Positions 20,126 through 29,549 of a stretch of 64,000 nucleotides of DNA are shown here, one piece after another. The stretch covers positions 13,771 through 77,770 of the forward strand of contig CAWFVZ010000002.1 in NCBI GenBank assembly GCA_963819355.1, written 5' to 3'. Both the position numbers and the translations under genes were made by a program. The notes under the pieces are model-generated. The model worked only from the letters and a program-made list of their open reading frames with translations. It was not told the DNA's origin and did not search any database. Every line of letters begins with the position of its first letter. The first letter of the stretch is position 1. Source of the stretch: an uncultured Alphaproteobacteria bacterium (GTDB lineage: Bacteria; Pseudomonadota; Alphaproteobacteria; Rhizobiales; Xanthobacteraceae).

Positions 20126-21069
20126 TGGCCGCAGAGAACGGGCACACAGCGAAGGAGACAGTAGCGATCCGACGTGCCGATGGCGAAAGCCGTACGCTCG
20201 CCGCTTCGCTGCCGCGCCTGGTGCTGGAAGCCCGCCGCATCGCCGCCAACGTCATCCACGGCCTGCACGGCCGCCGCCGCGCCGGTTCCGGCGAAAATTT
20301 CTGGCAATACCGCCGCTTCGTCTCCGGCGAGCCGTCGCAGAACGTCGATTGGCGGCGCTCGGCACGTGACGACCATCTCTATGTCCGCGAGCTTGAATGG
20401 GAAGCCTCGCACACGGTCTGGATCTGGCCCGACCGCTCGCCTTCGATGGCGTTCGCTTCGAAGACCGCACGCGAGTCCAAGCTGGAGCGCACGCTGATTG
20501 TCGCGTTCGCGTTGGCCGAGCTGCTGGTCGCGGGCGGTGAACGCGTCGGCATTCCCGGATTGATGGCGCCGACCGCGAGCCGCAGTGTCATCGACAAGAT
20601 GGCGCAGGCGATGCTGCATGACGATGCCGACCGGCTGAGCCTGCCGCCCTCCTTCGTGCCTGCGGCGCTGGCCGAAACGATCGTGCTGTCGGATTTCTGG
20701 TCGCCGATATCAGAGATCCAGGCCACGCTCGCCGGCCTGTCCGGCTCGGGCGCGCATGGCACGCTGGTCCAGGTCGTCGATCCCGCAGAGGAATCGTTCC
20801 CCTATTCCGGCCGCGTCGAGTTCGTCGAGCCTGAAGGCTTTGGCGTGATCACCGCCGGCCGCGCCGAAAGCTGGGCGCAGGACTACACTGCGCGGCTCGC
20901 GCTCCACCGCGACCAGATCCGCGCCGAGACCAACAAGCTCGACTGGCTGTTCACGACGCATGCGACCGACCGCTCGGCCGCCGAGCTGCTGCTGTTCCTC
21001 CATGCCGGCATGCAGGTGAGCAAGTCGGGTGCGCGTACCACGGCGATCAAGGCGGGGCCGGCCGCATGA
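20125..21069 (+). CDS. DUF58 domain protein
   Basis: GENFWQYR, VDWRRSAR, YVRELE, DRSPSM. Confidence 0.92.
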   Translation: MAAENGHTAKETVAIRRADGESRTLAASLPRLVLEARRIAANVIHGLHGRRRAGSGENFWQYRRFVSGEPSQNVDWRRSARDDHLYVRELEWEASHTVWIWPDRSPSMAFASKTARESKLERTLIVAFALAELLVAGGERVGIPGLMAPTASRSVIDKMAQAMLHDDADRLSLPPSFVPAALAETIVLSDFWSPISEIQATLAGLSGSGAHGTLVQVVDPAEESFPYSGRVEFVEPEGFGVITAGRAESWAQDYTARLALHRDQIRAETNKLDWLFTTHATDRSAAELLLFLHAGMQVSKSGARTTAIKAGPAA

Positions 21070-23879
21070 TGGGATTGCCGCTCGCCTTCACCGAACCACT
21101 GCTCCTGATCGGCCTTATCAGCCTGCCGGTGCTGTGGTGGCTGCTGCGCGTGATGCCGCCGCGGCCGCGCCGCATCGAATTTCCGCCGACACGCCTGCTG
21201 TTCGACATCGCGCCGCGGGAAGAGACGCCCTCGCGGACGCCATGGTGGCTGACCGCGCTGCGCCTCCTGGCTGCGGCGCTGGTGATCTTCGCTGCCGCCG
21301 GCCCGATCTGGAATCCGCAGACCGGCCTCGCCGCCAGCAAGGCGCCGCTGATGATCATGCTCGACGACGGCTGGAGCGCCGCGTCGAACTGGGACATCAG
21401 GATCAGGGCCGCCGACGAGCTGATCGCCAATGCCGACAACGACCGCCGCGCGATCGCGCTGGTGCCGCTGTCCGAGCCGAACCGTGACATCACGCTGATG
21501 CCGGCGGGAGCGGCGCGCGTTGCGCTGCGCCAGCTCGCGCCAAAGCCCTATTCGATCGAGCGCGTTGAGACCCTGACCGCGATCGATCGTTTCCTGAATG
21601 CGACCGGCGACTGCGAGATCGCCTGGCTGTCCGACGGCGTCGATACCGGCCGCGGCGACGAGTTCGTGCAAGCGCTCGGCAAGACCGTCGGAGATCGCAG
21701 CTTGACGGTGTTCGAAGGCGGCACCTCCTCCCCACTGGCGCTGGTCGCGGCGGAGAATGCGGCTGCGAAAATGACGGTGAAGGTGCTGCGCACCGACAGC
21801 GGCATCGCCGCCGGCACCGTGCGGGCGCTGGACCAGAAGGCCTCGCCGATCGGCGAAGCGCGCTTTACCTTCGGGCCGCAGGACAAGGAGACCGAGGCGG
21901 CGTTCGACCTGCCGGTCGAGCTGCGCAACGACATCAGCCGGCTCGAGATCTCCGGCGAGCGTTCGGCCGGCGCGGTGCAGCTGCTCGACAAGCGCTGGCG
22001 TCGCCGCGCCATCGGCATCGTCTCGGGTGCGAGCAGCGAGACCGCGCAGCCGCTGCTGGCGCCGACCTTCTACCTCACCCGCGCGCTGGCGCCGTTCGCC
22101 GACGTGCGGCTCGCCGACAAGGGCTCGCCGCAGCAGGGCATCACCCAGTTCCTCGATCAGAAGCTGCCGATGATCATCCTGGCCGATGTCGGCACGGTCG
22201 CGCCCGAACTGCGCGAGCGTCTCAACGCCTGGATCGACCAGGGCGGCGTGCTGGTGCGATTCGCCGGTCCCCGGCTGGCGCAGGCCGAAGACGATCTCGT
22301 TCCGGTCAAGCTGCGCAAGGGCGGCCGCACGCTCGGCGGCAGCCTGACCTGGGAAAAGCCGCAGCATCTTGCCGCCTTCACGGCCGACGGCCCGTTTGCC
22401 GGCGTGTTCGTGCCCAAGGACGTCACCGTGAGCCGGCAGGTGCTGGCCGAGCCCGATGCCGTGCTCGCCACCAAGAGCTGGGCCTCGCTTGAAGACGGCA
22501 CGCCGCTCGTGACCGGCGAGCATCGCGGCAAGGGACTGGTCAGCCTGTTCCATGTCAGCGCCGACATGCGCTGGTCGGATTTGCCGATGTCGGGCACCTT
22601 CGTCGAAATGCTGCGGCGGATCGTCGACATGTCCGGCTACACCGCCAAGCCGGGCGCCGGTGTTGCCGGCGAGGTGGCCGCCGAGACGGTGGCGCCGCTG
22701 CACATCCTCGACGGCTTCGGTGCCTTCGGGCCGCCGCCGGCCACCGCCAAGCCGCTGACGGCTGATTATCGCGACCGCGCCACGCCGGATCATCCGCCCG
22801 GCTTCTACGGTCCGGCAGAAGGACCGCTCGCCGTGAACACGCTCGCCGCCGCCGACCGCATCGCAGCCCTCAACACCGCGGGGCTGCGCGCCCAGCACGC
22901 CACCTACACCAATGCCGAGCCGCGCGATCTGCGCGGCTGGCTGCTGTCGACGTCGCTCGCGCTGTTCCTGGTCGACGCCATCATCGTAGCCCTGCTCGGC
23001 GGCGGTCTCGCCGCGCTGCTGCGCCGCCGCGCCGCGCCTGCCATGATCGTGCTCGGGCTGGTGCTTGCGGGCCTGATGTCATTCGCGCCGACGCCGTCGC
23101 GCGCCGACAGTACGGCAGACGAGTTCGCGATGAAGTCGACGTCGCAGACCCGCCTCGCCTATGTCGTCACCGGCAACGCCGACGTCGATTCCATCGTCAA
23201 GGCGGGCCTGTCCGGTCTCACGCTGTTCCTGGCGCAGCGCACCGCGCTCGAGGCCGGCGATCCCGTCGGCATCGACCCCGCGCGCGACGAGCTCGCCTTC
23301 TTCCCGCTGATCTACTGGCCGATCGTGCCGGGCGTGCCGAAACCGCCACAGGACGCCATCAACAGGATCGACGCCTATATGAAGCAGGGCGGCACCGTGA
23401 TCTTCGACACCCGCGACGCGGTCGAAGCGCCGCCCGGCGAGAACGGCGCATCGCAGACGCCGGGCATGCAGGCCTTGCGCGAGATCCTGTCCTCGCTCGA
23501 CGTGCCCGAGCTCGAGCCGGTGCCGCGCGAGCACGTGCTGACCAAGACCTTCTATCTGCTGCGCGACTTCCCCGGCCGCTTCAACTCGGGTCAGACCTGG
23601 GTCGAAGCGCTACCGCGCGAGGACGACGACGAGAGCGCGCAGAAGCCCGCGCGCGGCGGCGACGGCGTCTCGCCGATCATCATCACCTCCAACGACCTTG
23701 CGGGCGCCTGGGCGCTCCGTCCCGACGGCCAGCCGATGCTGCCGCTGAGCCCGGGCGAGCCGCGCCAACGCGAATTCGCCTACCGCGCCGGCGTCAACAT
23801 CGTGATGTACACGCTGACCGGCAACTACAAGGCCGACCAGGTGCACGCACCGGCGCTCATCGAACGGCTGGGGCAATAG
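21066..23879 (+). CDS. BatA N-terminal double-TM / VWA-like / DUF4159 membrane protein
   Basis: FTEP..L...W...P start, LDDGWS MIDAS-like motif, C-terminal AGVNIVMYTLTGNYKADQ. Confidence 0.85.
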   Translation: MMGLPLAFTEPLLLIGLISLPVLWWLLRVMPPRPRRIEFPPTRLLFDIAPREETPSRTPWWLTALRLLAAALVIFAAAGPIWNPQTGLAASKAPLMIMLDDGWSAASNWDIRIRAADELIANADNDRRAIALVPLSEPNRDITLMPAGAARVALRQLAPKPYSIERVETLTAIDRFLNATGDCEIAWLSDGVDTGRGDEFVQALGKTVGDRSLTVFEGGTSSPLALVAAENAAAKMTVKVLRTDSGIAAGTVRALDQKASPIGEARFTFGPQDKETEAAFDLPVELRNDISRLEISGERSAGAVQLLDKRWRRRAIGIVSGASSETAQPLLAPTFYLTRALAPFADVRLADKGSPQQGITQFLDQKLPMIILADVGTVAPELRERLNAWIDQGGVLVRFAGPRLAQAEDDLVPVKLRKGGRTLGGSLTWEKPQHLAAFTADGPFAGVFVPKDVTVSRQVLAEPDAVLATKSWASLEDGTPLVTGEHRGKGLVSLFHVSADMRWSDLPMSGTFVEMLRRIVDMSGYTAKPGAGVAGEVAAETVAPLHILDGFGAFGPPPATAKPLTADYRDRATPDHPPGFYGPAEGPLAVNTLAAADRIAALNTAGLRAQHATYTNAEPRDLRGWLLSTSLALFLVDAIIVALLGGGLAALLRRRAAPAMIVLGLVLAGLMSFAPTPSRADSTADEFAMKSTSQTRLAYVVTGNADVDSIVKAGLSGLTLFLAQRTALEAGDPVGIDPARDELAFFPLIYWPIVPGVPKPPQDAINRIDAYMKQGGTVIFDTRDAVEAPPGENGASQTPGMQALREILSSLDVPELEPVPREHVLTKTFYLLRDFPGRFNSGQTWVEALPREDDDESAQKPARGGDGVSPIIITSNDLAGAWALRPDGQPMLPLSPGEPRQREFAYRAGVNIVMYTLTGNYKADQVHAPALIERLGQ

Positions 23880-23886
23880 GACCGAG

Positions 23887-25950
23887 ATGAATTACGGCAT
23901 CGCGTTCACGCCGCTGGTTCCCACGATCGTCCTGTGGATCGCGCTCGCTGCGATCGTGGTCATCGCGCTCGTGCTGCTGCTCGCACGGGCGCGCGGCACC
24001 GCGGTGCGCGTGGCAGCACTTGCGCTGTTCCTGCTGGCGCTCGCCAATCCCTCCTTCACGCGCGAGGATCGCGATCCCCTCACCTCGATCGCCGCCGTGA
24101 TCGTCGACAAGAGCCCGAGCCAGAATTTCGGCAAGCGCAACCAGGAGGCCGCGCAGGCCCAGGAGGCGCTGGTCGACAGCCTGAAGAAGATCAAGGGGCT
24201 CGAGGTGCGCGTCGTCGATGCCGGACAGGCCGACGGCGAGACCGACGGCACCCGTCTGTTCGGCGCGCTGGCCTCCACGCTTTCGGACGTGCCGGTCGAT
24301 CGCGTCGCCGGCGCGTTCCTGATCACCGACGGCCGCGTTCACGACATCCCGGCCAACGCCGCCGCGCTCGGCTTCCAGGCGCCGATACATGCGCTGATCA
24401 CCGGGCAGAAGGACGAACGCGACCGGCGCATCGCGATCACGGCAGCGCCCCGTTTCGGCATCGTCGGCCAGAACCAGACCATCACCTACCGGCTCGACGA
24501 CCAGGGCGTCACTGGCGAGCGCGCCAAGGTGACGGTCCGCCGCGACGGCGAGGTCATCAACGAGCGCACGCTCTCGAGCGGTCAGACCGCAAGCGTCGAC
24601 GTCGAGATCAAGCATGCCGGCCCGAACATCGTCGAGATCGAGGCCTCACCGCTCGAGCGCGAGCTGACGCCGGTGAACAACCGCGCCGTCGTCGCCATCG
24701 ACGGCGTGCGCGACAAGCTGCGCGTGCTGCTGGTCTCCGGCGAGCCGCATTCCGGCGAACGCACCTGGCGCAATCTCTTGAAGTCCGACGCCAGCGTCGA
24801 CCTCGTGCACTTCACGATTCTGCGTCCGCCGGAGAAGCAGGACGGCACGCCGATCAACGAATTGTCGCTGATCGCGTTTCCGACCCGCGAGCTGTTCCAG
24901 CAGAAGATCAACGAATTCCAGCTGATCATCTTCGACCGCTACGCCCGCCAGGGCGTGCTTCCGATCGCCTATTTCGACAACATCGCGCGCTATGTGCGCT
25001 CGGGCGGCGCCGTGCTGGTCTCGGCCGGCCCCGACTACGCCTCCAACACCAGCATCTGGCGCACGCCGCTGGATTCGGTGCTGCCGGCAGAGCCCGTCGG
25101 TGTGACCGAGAAGCCGTTCTATGCGCATCTGTCCGACGTCGGCAAACGTCATCCGGTGACGCGCGGGCTGGAAGGCTCGGCAACCGAGCCGCCGCACTGG
25201 AGCCGCTTCTTCCGCACCGTCGATACCCGCAATTCCGTCAACCCGCCGGTGATGACGGGCGCGGACGGCAAGCCGCTATTGTTCCTGACGCGCTTCGGCG
25301 AGGGCCGCGTCGCGCTCTTGCTGTCCGACCACATCTGGCTGTGGGCGCGCGGCTATGAAGGTGGCGGCCCGCATCTCGATCTCTTACGGCGGATGTCGCA
25401 CTGGCTGATGAAGCAGCCGGACCTCGACGAGGAAGCGCTGCGCCTCCAGGTGCAGGGCAAGGATCTCGTGGTGGTGCGTCAGACCATGGCGGACAGCGTC
25501 CAGCCGGTGAGCGTGACCTCGCCCTCCGGGGTCTCGCATGATCTGACGCTCAGCCCTGGCGACCCCGGCGAGTGGCGCGCCAGCCTGCCGGCCAGCGAGC
25601 TCGGCCTGTGGCAGGCGACCGATGGCACGCTGAAGGCGCTGATCAATGTCGGCCCGACCAATCCGAAGGAGTTTTCGGAAGTCACCTCCACCACCGAGAC
25701 CCTGAAGCCGCTGACGCAGGCCACCGGCGGCAACGCGGTGCGGATCGCGGATGGCTCCAGTGTCGAGCTGCCGCGCATCGTCCCGGTGCGATCGGCGAGC
25801 GTATTTGCAGGCGACGGCTGGATGGGGATGCGAATGCGCGACGCCAGCGTCGTGAAGGGCGTCGGCGTGCTGCCGATCTTCGCCGGGCTGATCGGGCTCC
25901 TGCTGCTGCTCGGCGCGTTCACCGCGACCTGGGTCCGCGAAGGACGCTGA
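23887..25950 (+). CDS. conserved membrane protein with VWA-like and class I glutamine amidotransferase-like domains
   Basis: VDKSPSQ, LITDG, VLLVSGEPH, translationally linked to the upstream operon. Confidence 0.75.
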   Translation: MNYGIAFTPLVPTIVLWIALAAIVVIALVLLLARARGTAVRVAALALFLLALANPSFTREDRDPLTSIAAVIVDKSPSQNFGKRNQEAAQAQEALVDSLKKIKGLEVRVVDAGQADGETDGTRLFGALASTLSDVPVDRVAGAFLITDGRVHDIPANAAALGFQAPIHALITGQKDERDRRIAITAAPRFGIVGQNQTITYRLDDQGVTGERAKVTVRRDGEVINERTLSSGQTASVDVEIKHAGPNIVEIEASPLERELTPVNNRAVVAIDGVRDKLRVLLVSGEPHSGERTWRNLLKSDASVDLVHFTILRPPEKQDGTPINELSLIAFPTRELFQQKINEFQLIIFDRYARQGVLPIAYFDNIARYVRSGGAVLVSAGPDYASNTSIWRTPLDSVLPAEPVGVTEKPFYAHLSDVGKRHPVTRGLEGSATEPPHWSRFFRTVDTRNSVNPPVMTGADGKPLLFLTRFGEGRVALLLSDHIWLWARGYEGGGPHLDLLRRMSHWLMKQPDLDEEALRLQVQGKDLVVVRQTMADSVQPVSVTSPSGVSHDLTLSPGDPGEWRASLPASELGLWQATDGTLKALINVGPTNPKEFSEVTSTTETLKPLTQATGGNAVRIADGSSVELPRIVPVRSASVFAGDGWMGMRMRDASVVKGVGVLPIFAGLIGLLLLLGAFTATWVREGR

Positions 25951-26029
25951 TCGTTGCACGAACGACACATCGAGCAGCCGGCCCGCGCGGGCCGCTGCGG
26001 CGGCGATTGACATCCGTTCATCGTTCGAG

Positions 26030-26050
26030 CGATGTTACAATATTACATCG
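26030..26050. promoter_or_regulatory. Fur-family (Zur-like) box overlapping a TTGACA promoter
   Basis: CGATGTTACAATATTACATCG palindrome, with TTGACA at 26007. Confidence 0.6.
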
Positions 26051-26097
26051 CGACGTCAGGGGATTGGCGTCACGCGATGCGCGGGTGGCATTTCCAG

Positions 26098-26490
26098 ATG
26101 AAGTGGTTCCGGTCGAATATCAGGCACGGCGCCCGGCTCGCGATGTTCGCGATGCTGGTGCAGTTCGCACTGACGTTCGGCCACAGCCACTGGTTCGCCC
26201 AGGCCGCCCCCCTCGCACAATCTCAGCTGAGCGACAGCGCGATCGCTTCGATCGACCGCGTCGCGGTCCAGAAGAAGTCACCCGCAGCCCCCGACCGCGA
26301 GCAGCCGGGCGACGACAATTGCGCGATCTGCGCTTTGGTCGCGATGGCCGGCACGGTCATGTTCGCGACGCCGCCCTTGCTGCTGTTGCCGCAGGCGGTC
26401 GAACTGCTTTACCGCACCACCGATGCCGAATTCATCCATCTGGAATCGGCCAGCACGGCTTTCCAGCCGCGTGCCCCTCCCGCCTCCTGA
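26098..26490 (+). CDS. DUF2946 (CruR/CutF-like) leader protein
   Basis: N-terminal hydrophobic helix, CAIC motif, C-terminal QPRAPPAS-stop. Confidence 0.85.
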   Translation: MKWFRSNIRHGARLAMFAMLVQFALTFGHSHWFAQAAPLAQSQLSDSAIASIDRVAVQKKSPAAPDREQPGDDNCAICALVAMAGTVMFATPPLLLLPQAVELLYRTTDAEFIHLESASTAFQPRAPPAS

Positions 26491-26640
26491 TCCCCATCGA
26501 TTGAGCTGCCATCGGGTTAGGCCGTGCGTTCAAGCCGACCCCGCAAGGCTTTCGAAATTGATCCGTCGCGTAGCGATGGCGCGTGCCGCCTGCCAAGCCT
26601 CGAAAACGAGCGCGGCGGTGTGCGATCGGAAATCAGGACA

Positions 26641-28914
26641 ATGCGGTCTCCCAAACCAATATTGGCGGGCACAAGCATCGCCGCACTCACGCTGTTCCAT
26701 CTCGGTAGCAGCGCCATGGCGCAGACCGCAACGACGCCCACCGTCACGACGCTGCCCAGCGTCGAGGTCGATGCGCCCAAGCGGACGCAGGCGCCGCGCC
26801 GCCCCAAGGTTCGCGTCGCCGTCGAGAAGCGACGTGCAACCCCGCAGGCACGGCCGCAGACCGACGCGCCGGCCACGGTCGAGGGCCAGAGCGAACGGCT
26901 CGACGCCGCGCGCCAAAGCGTCCTTCCGCCTGGCGGAGCCACGGCTCATACGCTCAATCGCCAGGCGATCGAGGCGCTGCCTCAGGGCACCAATGCCTCG
27001 CTCGACAAGGTGCTGCTGCAGTTTCCCGGCGTCACGCAGGATTCGGCGGCGAGCGGCGACCTGCATGTCCGCAACGAGCACGCCAATCTGCAATATCGCA
27101 TCAACGGCGTCATGCTTCCCGACGGCGTCGGCGCATTCGGGCAGATTCTCGACACCGGCATCGTCGGCAGCCTCAGCCTGCTCACCGGCGCGCTGCCGGC
27201 ACAATATGGCCAGCGAACGGCAGGGGTGCTGGACATCCAGACCAAGGCCGACGCCTTCAACAATTCGGGTGTCGTCGGCGTCTATGGCGGCAGCAACGGC
27301 ACCATCTCGACCAACGTCGAATATGGTGGGACGGCCGGCCAGACCCAGTATTTCCTGTCGGGACGCTTTCTTCAGAACAATCTCGGCATCGAGAACCCGA
27401 CCCCGTCGGTCAATGCGATTCACGACCGCACCAACCAGGAGAAGGGATTTCTCTATCTCTCGACGATGATCGATCCGACCAGCCGCCTCACCTTCATGAG
27501 CGGCGTGTCGAACGCGACATTCCAAGTTCCGAACAATCCCGGCCAGACGCCGAATTTCACGGCGTTCGGCGTCTCGAATTTCGACTCGTCCCGGCTCAAC
27601 GAGCACCAGAACGAGTTCAATCAATTCAATGTCGTCTCCTACCAGACATCGAACGGCGAGTTCGACACCCAGACCTCCTACTTCAACCGCACTAGCCAGT
27701 TGCACTTCTATCCCGACCCGGTCGGCGATCTCGTGTTCAACGGTGTGTCCTCGGACGTCTATCGCCAGAGCGTGGTCAACGGCATCCAGCAGGACATTTC
27801 GTGGCGCGTCGGCTATGCGCACACGCTGCGCTTCGGCCTTTCGGTGAGCGCGGAGCGAACGCTGGTCAACAGCGGGACCACGGTGCTGCCGCTGGTCGAT
27901 CCCGCGGACCCGACGGCGGGCACGATCGACGCTCCCTTCTCGGTGTTCGATTCCAGCGCCAAGACCGGCTGGCTGATCGGGACCTACGTCCAGGATGAAT
28001 GGAAGATCACCAACAATCTGACGCTCAACGCGGGCCTGCGCTTCGACCAGATGTACCAATATGTCGACGCAAACCAGCTCAGCCCGCGCGTCAGCCTGAC
28101 CTGGAAGCCGTTCGATGGCACCACGTTCCACGCGGGCTATGCGCGCAACTTCACCCCGCCCTCACAGGTGATCGCCGCACCGGTCAATCTCGCGCTGGTG
28201 ACCCCGCCCGGCGCGCCTGCCAACACGCAGACGCCGGAGGTCGCGCAGAACAGCCCGGTCCTGCCGGAGCGGTCGCACGTGTTCGACATCGGCGTGGTGC
28301 AGAAGATTGATCCGGTCCCCGGTCTCGAGGTCGGCGTCGACGCCTACTACAAGAAGGCGCGCGACCTGCTCGACGACGGCCAGTTCGGCGCGGCTTATGT
28401 GCTGAGCGGCTTCAACTATGATCGCGGCGAGAATGTCGGCGTCGAGCTCAAATCGACCTACCGCAACGGCAATTTCAGCGCTTACGCCAATCTGGCCTGG
28501 GCCAAGCAGATCGCAACCAATGTCGTCTCGAACCAGTATCTGTTCGGCGCGGATGAGCTCGCCTATATCGCGGGCCATTACGTCTACACCGACCACGCCC
28601 AGATGCTGTCGGCATCGGCCGGCGCCTCCTATCTCTGGGAAGGAACGCGCTACAGCGTGTCGATGATCTATGGCAGCGGCCTGCGCTCGGGCTTTGCCAA
28701 CACCGATCATCTGCCGGGCTACACGCAGGTGAATCTCGGCCTGTCGCATGACTTCAACATCGTCGCACCGAACAAGCCGACGACGCTGCGCTTCGACGTG
28801 GTTAATGTGTTCGACACGATCTACCAGATCCGCGACGGCTCCGGCATCGGCGTGTTCGCCCCGCAATACGGACCGCGCCGCGGCTTCTACTTCGGCGTCT
28901 CGCAGCAGTTCTAG
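26641..28914 (+). CDS. TonB-dependent receptor
   Basis: Signal peptide, TonB-box-like LPSVEVDA, plug motif QFPGV...LHVR, NAGLRFD, and terminal Phe. Confidence 0.92.
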   Translation: MRSPKPILAGTSIAALTLFHLGSSAMAQTATTPTVTTLPSVEVDAPKRTQAPRRPKVRVAVEKRRATPQARPQTDAPATVEGQSERLDAARQSVLPPGGATAHTLNRQAIEALPQGTNASLDKVLLQFPGVTQDSAASGDLHVRNEHANLQYRINGVMLPDGVGAFGQILDTGIVGSLSLLTGALPAQYGQRTAGVLDIQTKADAFNNSGVVGVYGGSNGTISTNVEYGGTAGQTQYFLSGRFLQNNLGIENPTPSVNAIHDRTNQEKGFLYLSTMIDPTSRLTFMSGVSNATFQVPNNPGQTPNFTAFGVSNFDSSRLNEHQNEFNQFNVVSYQTSNGEFDTQTSYFNRTSQLHFYPDPVGDLVFNGVSSDVYRQSVVNGIQQDISWRVGYAHTLRFGLSVSAERTLVNSGTTVLPLVDPADPTAGTIDAPFSVFDSSAKTGWLIGTYVQDEWKITNNLTLNAGLRFDQMYQYVDANQLSPRVSLTWKPFDGTTFHAGYARNFTPPSQVIAAPVNLALVTPPGAPANTQTPEVAQNSPVLPERSHVFDIGVVQKIDPVPGLEVGVDAYYKKARDLLDDGQFGAAYVLSGFNYDRGENVGVELKSTYRNGNFSAYANLAWAKQIATNVVSNQYLFGADELAYIAGHYVYTDHAQMLSASAGASYLWEGTRYSVSMIYGSGLRSGFANTDHLPGYTQVNLGLSHDFNIVAPNKPTTLRFDVVNVFDTIYQIRDGSGIGVFAPQYGPRRGFYFGVSQQF

Positions 28915-29132
28915 CCGCGGGCTTCCGTTTCAGTCGGGGCCCGCGGGCCCCGACACGCCTCGTCCGGTTGCGGGGTCAGGCAAAATCAGCGCCAACGCGC
29001 GATCGCCACGCGGGGAGCGGCGGGCCATCGCCCACGTCCCAAAAAACTGAAACGATGACTTTCAATTATTTTATTTCTGTTTCGCTCGCTGAGCCAGCAA
29101 CCACATCATCGCTCCACAGACAGGAGCCTCCG

Positions 29133-29549
29133 ATGACCCAACAGGCCAGCAAGACCAACGCCCCGCTATCGGTGGGCGCCGATGTGAGCGGGATAGAGAC
29201 GCTGCTCAACCGCAACCTGCAGGATGTCTTCGGTGAAGGCGATCCGGCGCGCCGAAGGCGCGCAATCCGGGAACTCTACACTGAGGACTGCGTGCTGTAC
29301 GCGCCGCCCGGCACCTTCGTCGGTCACGACGCACTGGACAAGTTCGCCGGCGATCTCCGGGCGACGCATCCGCATTTTGTCTATACGCCGCACGGCTCGC
29401 CCCAGGTCCTGCACAATTCGGGACGCCTGTCATGGGGATCGGGGCCGAAGGGCGAAGCGCCCGCCTACACCGGTGTGGATTTCGTCATCGCGCGCGACTG
29501 CAAGATCGCGGCTCTCTATGTTTACGTCGACTCGCCGTTAACAGAATGA
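29133..29549 (+). CDS. SnoaL/NTF2-like protein
   Basis: VFGEGDPARRRRAIRELY...GVDFVIARD.KI, with CAGGAG SD. Confidence 0.85.
   Translation: MTQQASKTNAPLSVGADVSGIETLLNRNLQDVFGEGDPARRRRAIRELYTEDCVLYAPPGTFVGHDALDKFAGDLRATHPHFVYTPHGSPQVLHNSGRLSWGSGPKGEAPAYTGVDFVIARDCKIAALYVYVDSPLTE

Follow-up and report, generated by a model that had tools for sequence, protein, structure and literature searches.

Leaders that end in the ribosome-arrest motif RAPP or RGPP are very common ahead of genes for TonB-dependent receptors, YcnI, PCuAC and PepSY proteins, and the route that leads from arrest to gene control was left as an open question (PMC12992588). Upstream open reading frames (uORFs) of the RAPP/RGPP type have been published before TonB receptors (PMC12992588), as have more than 5000 CutF-like proteins (PMC9973294), and homologues of CruR are known before TonB receptors in groups that include Alphaproteobacteria and Bradyrhizobium (PMC9426467). 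Here we describe a leader of this class in a 64,000-nucleotide (nt) stretch of DNA from an uncultured alphaproteobacterium (contig CAWFVZ010000002.1, positions 13,771 to 77,770), hereafter the window, whose own numbering is used throughout. The leader, a member of the DUF2946/CruR family, is followed by the gene for a TonB-dependent receptor in a two-gene Bradyrhizobium operon. We judge it probable, with room for doubt, that stalling of a ribosome on the leader's RAPP motif unmasks the receptor's Shine-Dalgarno (SD) sequence. The leader class itself is already known; what is new is that the leader's stop region is predicted to mask the SD from across a long spacer, in combination with a Zur-type operator. 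In the papers that we consulted on RAPP/CruR-type leaders we found no case of an anti-SD in the leader's own tail reaching the SD across long spacers.

The closest described system is CruR (Bp2923) of Bordetella pertussis, a copper-responsive uORF that precedes the TonB-dependent transporter BfrG/CrtA (PMC9426467). The two leaders belong to the same Pfam family and share an N-terminal hydrophobic segment, a CxxC motif, a spacing of ~45 residues, and a RAPP motif two or three residues before the stop. Both are operon-first genes separated by a long structured spacer (150 nt here versus 162 nt) from a TonB-dependent receptor, and both have a region of C over G excess (C>G bubble) at the leader 3' end. 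They differ in output, since Rho termination is the published outcome for CruR, whereas here, and throughout the surveyed family loci, the tail of the leader matches the downstream SD by complementarity, and direct translational unmasking is therefore suggested. The locus also differs from CruR in carrying a Zur-type operator, which points to zinc rather than copper, in lacking a downstream PepSY_TM gene, and in having a receptor outside the recognised copper-receptor families.

CutF of Rhodobacter capsulatus (cutFOG) is likewise a cis-acting, DUF2946-related leader, and its C-terminal stall opens an RNA that shields the SD. Common to both systems, as far as folding models can tell, is a downstream SD paired with an anti-SD within reach of a stalled ribosome. 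However, CutF has a CxxxC, a PPP-type motif, a short spacer, a local stem-loop, a copper-induced stall and a detoxifying multicopper oxidase downstream. In contrast, the window leader combines CxxC with RAPP, its anti-SD consists of its own last codon plus the stop, the helix closes a 150-nt domain of three hairpins, and the gene that is controlled encodes an uptake receptor. Unfolding of the stem-loop was expected by the CutF authors for short spacers only (bioRxiv 10.1101/2025.02.05.636593; PMC9973294). At the level of RNA the locus is predicted to act as CutF does, without being its orthologue.

Classical arrest switches sense export or antibiotics through pulling force or drug binding, whereas the leader studied here has a CxxC and a metal-homeostasis context. 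In ErmCL-type leaders, arrest near the leader end exposes a downstream SD. The same principle operates in SecM-secA, MifM-yidC2, VemP-secDF2 and ApdA/ApdP, where the arrested ribosome holds the anti-SD in or near its mRNA channel and the SD is exposed (PMC10987492, PMC12992588); ApdA and ApdP have a RAPP arrest motif, as here. At the transcriptional level, the locus resembles the Zur-repressed zinc receptors ZnuK/L/M of Caulobacter (PMC4176598), where an operator with a GTTA-N5-TAAC core lies over the promoter of a TonB-dependent receptor operon. No RAPP leader has been described for ZnuK/L/M, whereas the present locus combines an arrest leader with a Zur-type site ahead of it.

The leader and its predicted pairing with the receptor start

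The elements of the operon that bear on translation are as follows.

26098-26490, + strand: leader gene (uORF) of the DUF2946/CruR family, 130 amino acids (aa), from ATG 26098 to TGA 26488-26490
26137-26178, + strand: hydrophobic N-terminal segment, residues ~14-27, read from the sequence and invariant or nearly so in orthologues
26320-26331, + strand: CAIC (CxxC), putatively metal-binding, residues 75-78, invariant in 23/23 sequences
26470-26481, + strand: RAPP arrest motif, residues 125-128, codons CGT GCC CCT CCC, invariant in 23/23 sequences
26480-26495, + strand: predicted anti-SD strand, comprising CCGC 26480-26483, UCCUGAU 26485-26491 and CC 26494-26495, from minimum free energy (MFE) and centroid folds, pairing probability 0.83-1.0
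26496-26624, + strand: structured spacer with three predicted hairpin domains (26496-26562, 26563-26579 and 26580-26624), from a single-sequence fold and RNAalifold
26628-26646, + strand: SD strand, reading GG, a bulged AA, AUCAGGA, ACA, the start codon AUG 26641-26643 and CGG, from folds and conservation
26641-28914, + strand: TonB-dependent receptor gene, 757 aa, with a Pfam TonB_dep_Rec_b-barrel match (1e-32) and a weak Plug match

The leader matched Pfam PF11162 (DUF2946) over the full profile (1-117) with 38.7 bits against a cut-off of 23.7 (E 2e-9). A first-pass annotation of the window, made from sequence alone, had described a 130-aa open reading frame (ORF) with a hydrophobic helix, CAIC and a terminal RAPP-Ala-Ser-stop, and the sequence bears this out, with DUF2946 now assigned above the Pfam cut-off. 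As read from the sequence, its N-terminus consists of basic residues and then the hydrophobic stretch LAMFAMLVQFALTF, directly followed by a conserved GHSH (26179-26190). CAIC and RAPP lie 46 residues apart, within the family spacing of 45 +/- 2 residues (PMC9426467), and Ala-Ser-stop directly follows RAPP, the usual distance from motif to stop in our surveys being 2-4 residues. The peptide is kept in 22 orthologues from its MKWFRSN start to FQPRAPPAS. The window has a further in-frame ATG 21 nt 5' of the leader start (26077-26097), but in orthologues the upstream ATG is out of frame (20 nt) and its TGA overlaps the leader ATG, so ATG 26098 is the conserved start. The spacer to the receptor is 150 nt on the same strand, and the operon opens with the leader gene. 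The assignment of an arrest-type uORF ahead of a TonB-dependent receptor holds, and comparison of sequences supports a CruR-family arrest-peptide leader.

Folding of 26440-26660, which the first-pass annotation had asked for, placed a 7-base-pair helix between TCCTGAT (26485-26491) and ATCAGGA (26632-26638) in both the MFE and centroid folds. The first of these strands comprises the Ser codon, the TGA stop and one U, and the second contains the AGGA SD of the receptor (26635-26638). Also paired in both folds were CC 26494-26495 with GG 26628-26629, and CCGC 26480-26483 paired with GCGG 26643-26646 so as to span the receptor start codon. In a partition-function model of 26400-26675, pairs between the SD and the tail had probabilities of 0.9-1.0. 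The long-range helix encloses the three spacer hairpins. The complementarity originally proposed was more extensive and survives in part: its UCCUGAU:AUCAGGA portion appears in the folds, while the outer ATCG:CGAT portion exists only on paper, as ATCGATT (26496-26502) folded locally with 26556-26562 rather than with the outer CGAT. As an aside on the SD flank, changing AAUCAGGA to AAAGAGGA would leave an SD.

For CruR, arrest was reported in vitro, and toeprinting assigned the two RAPP prolines to the P-site and A-site codons (PMC12992588). By analogy, we infer that a stall here would place CCT 26476-26478 in the P-site and CCC 26479-26481 in the A-site, with a footprint to ~26491 that agrees with the CruR toeprint of PMC12992588. 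The anti-SD of the window would then occupy +9 to +15 relative to the P-site, within the stalled-ribosome footprint. When 26461-26492 was blocked to represent this footprint in the partition-function model, the SD became unpaired with probability 0.9-1.0, except for its two G's. The earlier proposal that a RAPP-stalled ribosome opens an SD-hiding helix therefore fits the geometry (P-site 26476-26478, footprint to ~26491). What these computations show, within the limits of such models, is that the SD is hidden in the free RNA and that the strand which covers it falls at the place a ribosome stalled on RAPP would occupy.

The three-hairpin spacer comes from the single-sequence fold and from RNAalifold on eight sequences of one orthologue group (group A, below). 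An Rfam scan of 25900-26800 at E <= 1 returned only a sub-threshold match to COG2908 RNA (17.9 versus 58.7 bits), and the spacer matched no known riboswitch or leader family in Rfam. A terminator scan found no intrinsic terminator in the spacer on the + strand, and classical terminator/antiterminator attenuation was rejected because of this. The spacer is unique in the genome, and its interpretation as a repeat element was likewise rejected.

Orthologues, a paralogue and family-wide surveys

We assembled 22 orthologous Bradyrhizobium loci, giving 23 sequences with the window; the laboratory strain B. diazoefficiens USDA110 also carries a locus of the orthologous type. All 22 orthologues encode FQPRAPP(A/V)S with TCC-TGA (23/23 with the window), and GGAA(A)TCAGGAC[AC]ATG precedes the receptor in nearly all 23 loci, with one substitution in three. 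The receptor start at ATG 26641 is also kept across orthologues. The first-pass annotation had named loss of the pairing across orthologues as grounds for abandoning its proposal; all 22 retain it. Group A, which includes the window, has receptors 89-93% identical to that of the window. Group B (L002, L003, L005, L007, L009, L011-L015, L017 and L019-L022) encodes a receptor that is unrelated to it (<30% identity) behind a spacer that has diverged, together with the same leader, promoter and upstream synteny as group A. The SD segment is thus retained although two unrelated receptor genes come after it, and group B, found in many Bradyrhizobium species, gives the impression that the cargo gene was exchanged at an unchanged chromosomal position while the leader was conserved. 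Beyond the core helix, group A adds U-A plus CC:GG, and group B adds G-C plus UUCC:GGAA, one C being bulged. One species (L064) has the tail GCC-GCC-TAA, and there it is the Pro codons that match the SD, which reads GGGA.

The genome of the window also holds a second DUF2946 gene outside the window (L023; contig C17:550181-550513, - strand). This paralogue is of the RGPP type, its leader ending in ARGPPQFS-TGA, and it heads a pcu-type operon of receptor, YcnI-like and CopC/D-like genes. Its tail, UUCCUGAC, is complementary to GUCAGGAA at the SD of its receptor across a spacer of 85 nt, and it is without a Zur-like box.

Beyond Bradyrhizobium, PF11162 genes were located in 251 genomes of the order and 401 of the phylum, from which 158 loci were taken and de-duplicated at 75% identity of tail plus SD. 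To call the downstream start, we chose the reading frame with the best G+C content at third codon positions (GC3) and took its earliest ATG that had an SD; loci lacking such a start and loci with spacers outside 25-260 nt were dropped. We then compared the duplex energy between each tail (stop -15 to +15) and its own SD window (start -22 to +3) with that of permuted pairings. In the order set (56 loci), own pairings averaged -12.9 versus -10.55 kcal/mol for permuted pairings (z = -6.35; 0/20000 permutations as low). An independent set of 51 loci from other classes gave -13.2 versus -9.7 kcal/mol (z = -9.3). The excess of own over permuted pairing, which reached -2.5 kcal/mol in the order set and -3.8 kcal/mol in the other-class set, was limited on the leader side to windows whose centres lay at -8 to +4 of the stop codon. 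On the target side, only windows with centres at -20 to -5 relative to the start codon showed it (paired t = -5.9). As a control, 400 ordinary gene pairs from this genome, both members on one strand and 25-260 nt apart, gave no excess (-13.0 versus -12.9 to -13.3), and the possibility that a tail:SD match is a general property of operons was rejected on the basis of these controls. Stalling on RAPP as the event that opens the SD helix also fits this family-wide, position-specific complementarity, which is without counterpart in ordinary gene pairs.

Nearly all surveyed leaders end in R[A/G]PP, 2-4 further residues and the stop. Numbered from the P-site codon's first base, the anti-SD bases of 77 loci were most frequent at +12 to +16, and most fell within +6 to +20. 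This peak would be the leading edge of the stalled ribosome, and the tight distance from RAPP to the stop is explained if the anti-SD must sit at that edge. The pairing sequences themselves vary widely, for example CUCCUGAG:CUCAGGAG, UCUGAUCC:GGAUCAGA and CCUUAAUUAGUC:GACUAAUUAAGG, and one pair of related loci shows a compensatory change (UGACACG:CGUGUCA versus UGACACAG:CUGUGUCA).

Some leaders depart from the usual ending. Nine in other Pseudomonadota (L121, L131, L138, L140, L141, L143, L146, L151 and L152) end in PRASP instead of RAPP, several with a strong tail:SD match such as GCUUCCUC:GAGGAAGC or ACCUGAAAG:CUUUCAGGU. Three in the low-GC genomes G525 and G468 (L130, L142 and L156) have the Arg-less ending SAAPP, and two of the three show a 10-base-pair tail:SD match (CUCCuACACAA:UUGUGUGGAG). 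AAPP served as a non-arresting control in PMC12992588.

A probable Zur-type operator, the receptor and the neighbourhood

Two further elements lie upstream of the leader.

26007-26012, + strand: -35-like hexamer TTGACA, conserved in the window and all 22 Bradyrhizobium orthologues
26031-26049, no strand assigned: Zur-box-like palindrome GATGTTA-N5-TtACATC, 19 base pairs, ~50-65 nt 5' of the leader ATG

A strict sigma-70 scan found no full promoter upstream of the leader. The palindrome, which lies over the promoter region, is a perfect GATGTTA-N5-TAACATC in most of the 22 orthologues and one base off in the rest (TAACGTC, TTACATC). Its GTTA-N5-TAAC core, which has been used for finding Zur sites (PMC4176598), has one mismatch in the window and is perfect in 21/22 orthologues. 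The 7.6-megabase genome contains a single further AT-rich match, upstream of an AztC-like zinc ATP-binding cassette (ABC) operon whose products are a small His-rich protein, an ABC ATPase together with a permease, and a zinc-binding protein resembling AztC. A Zur-like protein of the Fur family is also present, scoring 120 bits, below the equivalog cut-off of 167. Among the 158 surveyed DUF2946 loci, a Zur-type box occurred only at Bradyrhizobium loci of the window type.

Judged from sequence, there is thus a candidate operator, the same motif at a zinc-uptake operon and a Zur-like gene, and the palindrome is probably a Zur operator. Because of these three observations, the receptor is probably zinc-regulated at transcription. 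The conserved Zur-type operator suggests a link to zinc rather than copper, and for this reason the relevant metal may be zinc. At the AztC-type operon, the gene right behind the Zur-like box (contig C40, ~347200-347460, - strand) encodes a small His-rich membrane protein (MVPAAPHAHHHDHSHGHHHDHAHLHGHDHSHAHVHD...), which could itself be a sensor or leader.

The receptor matched no specific NCBIfam equivalog, its best and weak match being a heme/hemoglobin receptor subfamily, and it had no relative in PDB at 1e-5. On its 3' side, an ORF with SnoaL-like similarity follows on the same strand (28968-29549). Upstream of the leader (21066-25950) lie genes for a 937-aa BatA-N/DUF4159 protein and for another of 687 aa, whose GATase1-like match is weak. 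This pair represents an aerotolerance-type Bat cluster, whose synteny with the leader is kept in orthologues.

Proposed mechanism and alternatives

In the mechanism that we favour, stall-dependent unmasking of the receptor SD, transcription would start behind the Zur-type operator and rise in zinc shortage. On free mRNA, UCCUGAU would pair across the 150-nt three-hairpin spacer with AUCAGGA and hide the SD. Receptor initiation would be blocked because the tail pairs with the SD and the flanking pairs cover the start codon. A ribosome arrested on RAPP, with the Pro codons in its P and A sites, would have its mRNA channel over positions +9 to +15, which are the anti-SD; judging from this geometry, the SD would be freed and the receptor translated. 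By analogy with CruR, binding of metal to the nascent CAIC would release the arrest. Termination would follow, the helix would re-form, and receptor synthesis would be switched off. The untranslated C-rich RNA could then become a target of Rho, as in CruR, and both outputs may act together.

Several observations weigh against this mechanism. At the single locus, when 30-mers were drawn at random from the window, 5.8% matched or exceeded the real tail in pairing with the SD window, and the fold energy of the whole region is ordinary relative to shuffles (z = -0.81). Fold energy alone was not counted as evidence because it was not significant against shuffles, and since the single-locus pairing is weakly above chance, the weight lies on the comparative data. 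There, the Bradyrhizobium orthologues show no covariation because their core helix is invariant, and synonymous variation is low everywhere in these close relatives. We used cross-family permutation tests because the orthologue covariation test was uninformative; their start calls come from a heuristic, SD-requiring rule, and some may be wrong. Finally, CruR, the sole RAPP-type member studied at the bench, was explained by Rho-dependent termination with no SD masking invoked (PMC9426467), and the following feature of the window is comparable to the one in CruR.

26410-26547, + strand: C>G bubble at the leader 3' end and spacer start, GC skew -0.19 to -0.37 in 78-nt windows

In CruR, a Rho utilization (rut) site lies in the C>G bubble at the leader 3' end, and Rho dependence was demonstrated in vivo and in vitro (PMC9426467); a published codon-optimised (OCU) mutant had lost its control by copper. 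The CruR-like bubble keeps a contribution of Rho in play here. Taken to its limit, it would allow attenuation purely of the CruR type, in which the stall shields rut, release leads to Rho termination in the spacer, and the tail:SD helix is incidental or structural. The long structured spacer, as in cruR-bfrG, and the marginal pairing at the single locus are in keeping with this account. Nonetheless, we consider it unlikely, as it leaves unexplained both the tail:SD complementarity in 107 non-redundant DUF2946 loci, which is absent from the control pairs, and the position of the anti-SD at +12 to +16 of the stall P-site. Rho termination and SD masking are also not mutually exclusive. The first-pass annotation had CruR and CutF both controlling downstream copper genes in one and the same way. 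As worded, this is not supported: CruR was reported to act via Rho rather than SD pairing (PMC9426467), and in CutF copper induces the stall and does not relieve it (PMC9973294).

This last point raises the alternative that metal induces or prolongs the stall and that the receptor is switched on in metal excess. CutF belongs to the same DUF2946 superfamily, its copper-induced stall melts an SD-shielding stem-loop (PMC9973294; bioRxiv 10.1101/2025.02.05.636593), and the RNA design at the locus would serve either metal logic. Yet an uptake-type receptor behind a Zur-type site fits expression in shortage, and CxxC plus RAPP at a 46-residue spacing is the pattern of CruR, not the CxxxC plus PPP of CutF, which makes CutF-type logic rather improbable here. 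Still more remote is an ordinary operon in which the ORF has no role as a leader and encodes a working periplasmic or membrane metal-binding protein, such as a chaperone or receptor partner. Conservation does run across the whole peptide, beyond CxxC and RAPP (MKWFRSNIRHG, FGHSHWF, DAEFxHL), and CutF was initially taken for a chaperone (PMC8456105). However, regulatory signatures are seen in the fixed short distance that separates RAPP from the stop, in the spacing between CxxC and RAPP and in the pairing of tail with SD. Moreover, CruR as well as CutF works solely in cis, and neither is detectable as a protein.

A broader reading goes beyond this locus and is one that we entertain with considerable doubt: that SD unmasking by a RAPP stall is the general, ancestral output of DUF2946/CruR leaders, including those with spacers of 100-260 nt, and that the leader in the window has been re-tuned to zinc. 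If the first part were true, the Rho dependence of CruR would be partly a consequence of failed translation initiation. If the second were true, a zinc-sensing arrest peptide would be stacked on Zur repression in a genome that also carries a copper-linked, pcu-type paralogue.

For the family, these results offer a testable answer to how arrest is converted into gene control: about 100 independent loci carry an anti-SD in the last codons of the leader, at the leading edge of the stalled ribosome. They also imply that pairing between a leader tail's anti-SD and the SD can bridge spacers that are long and structured. For Bradyrhizobium, the locus predicts a two-layer metal check, with a Zur-type operator and an arrest leader on one receptor, and this non-pathogenic genus, which is amenable to genetics, has a further copy of the device, linked to copper, with which it can be compared.

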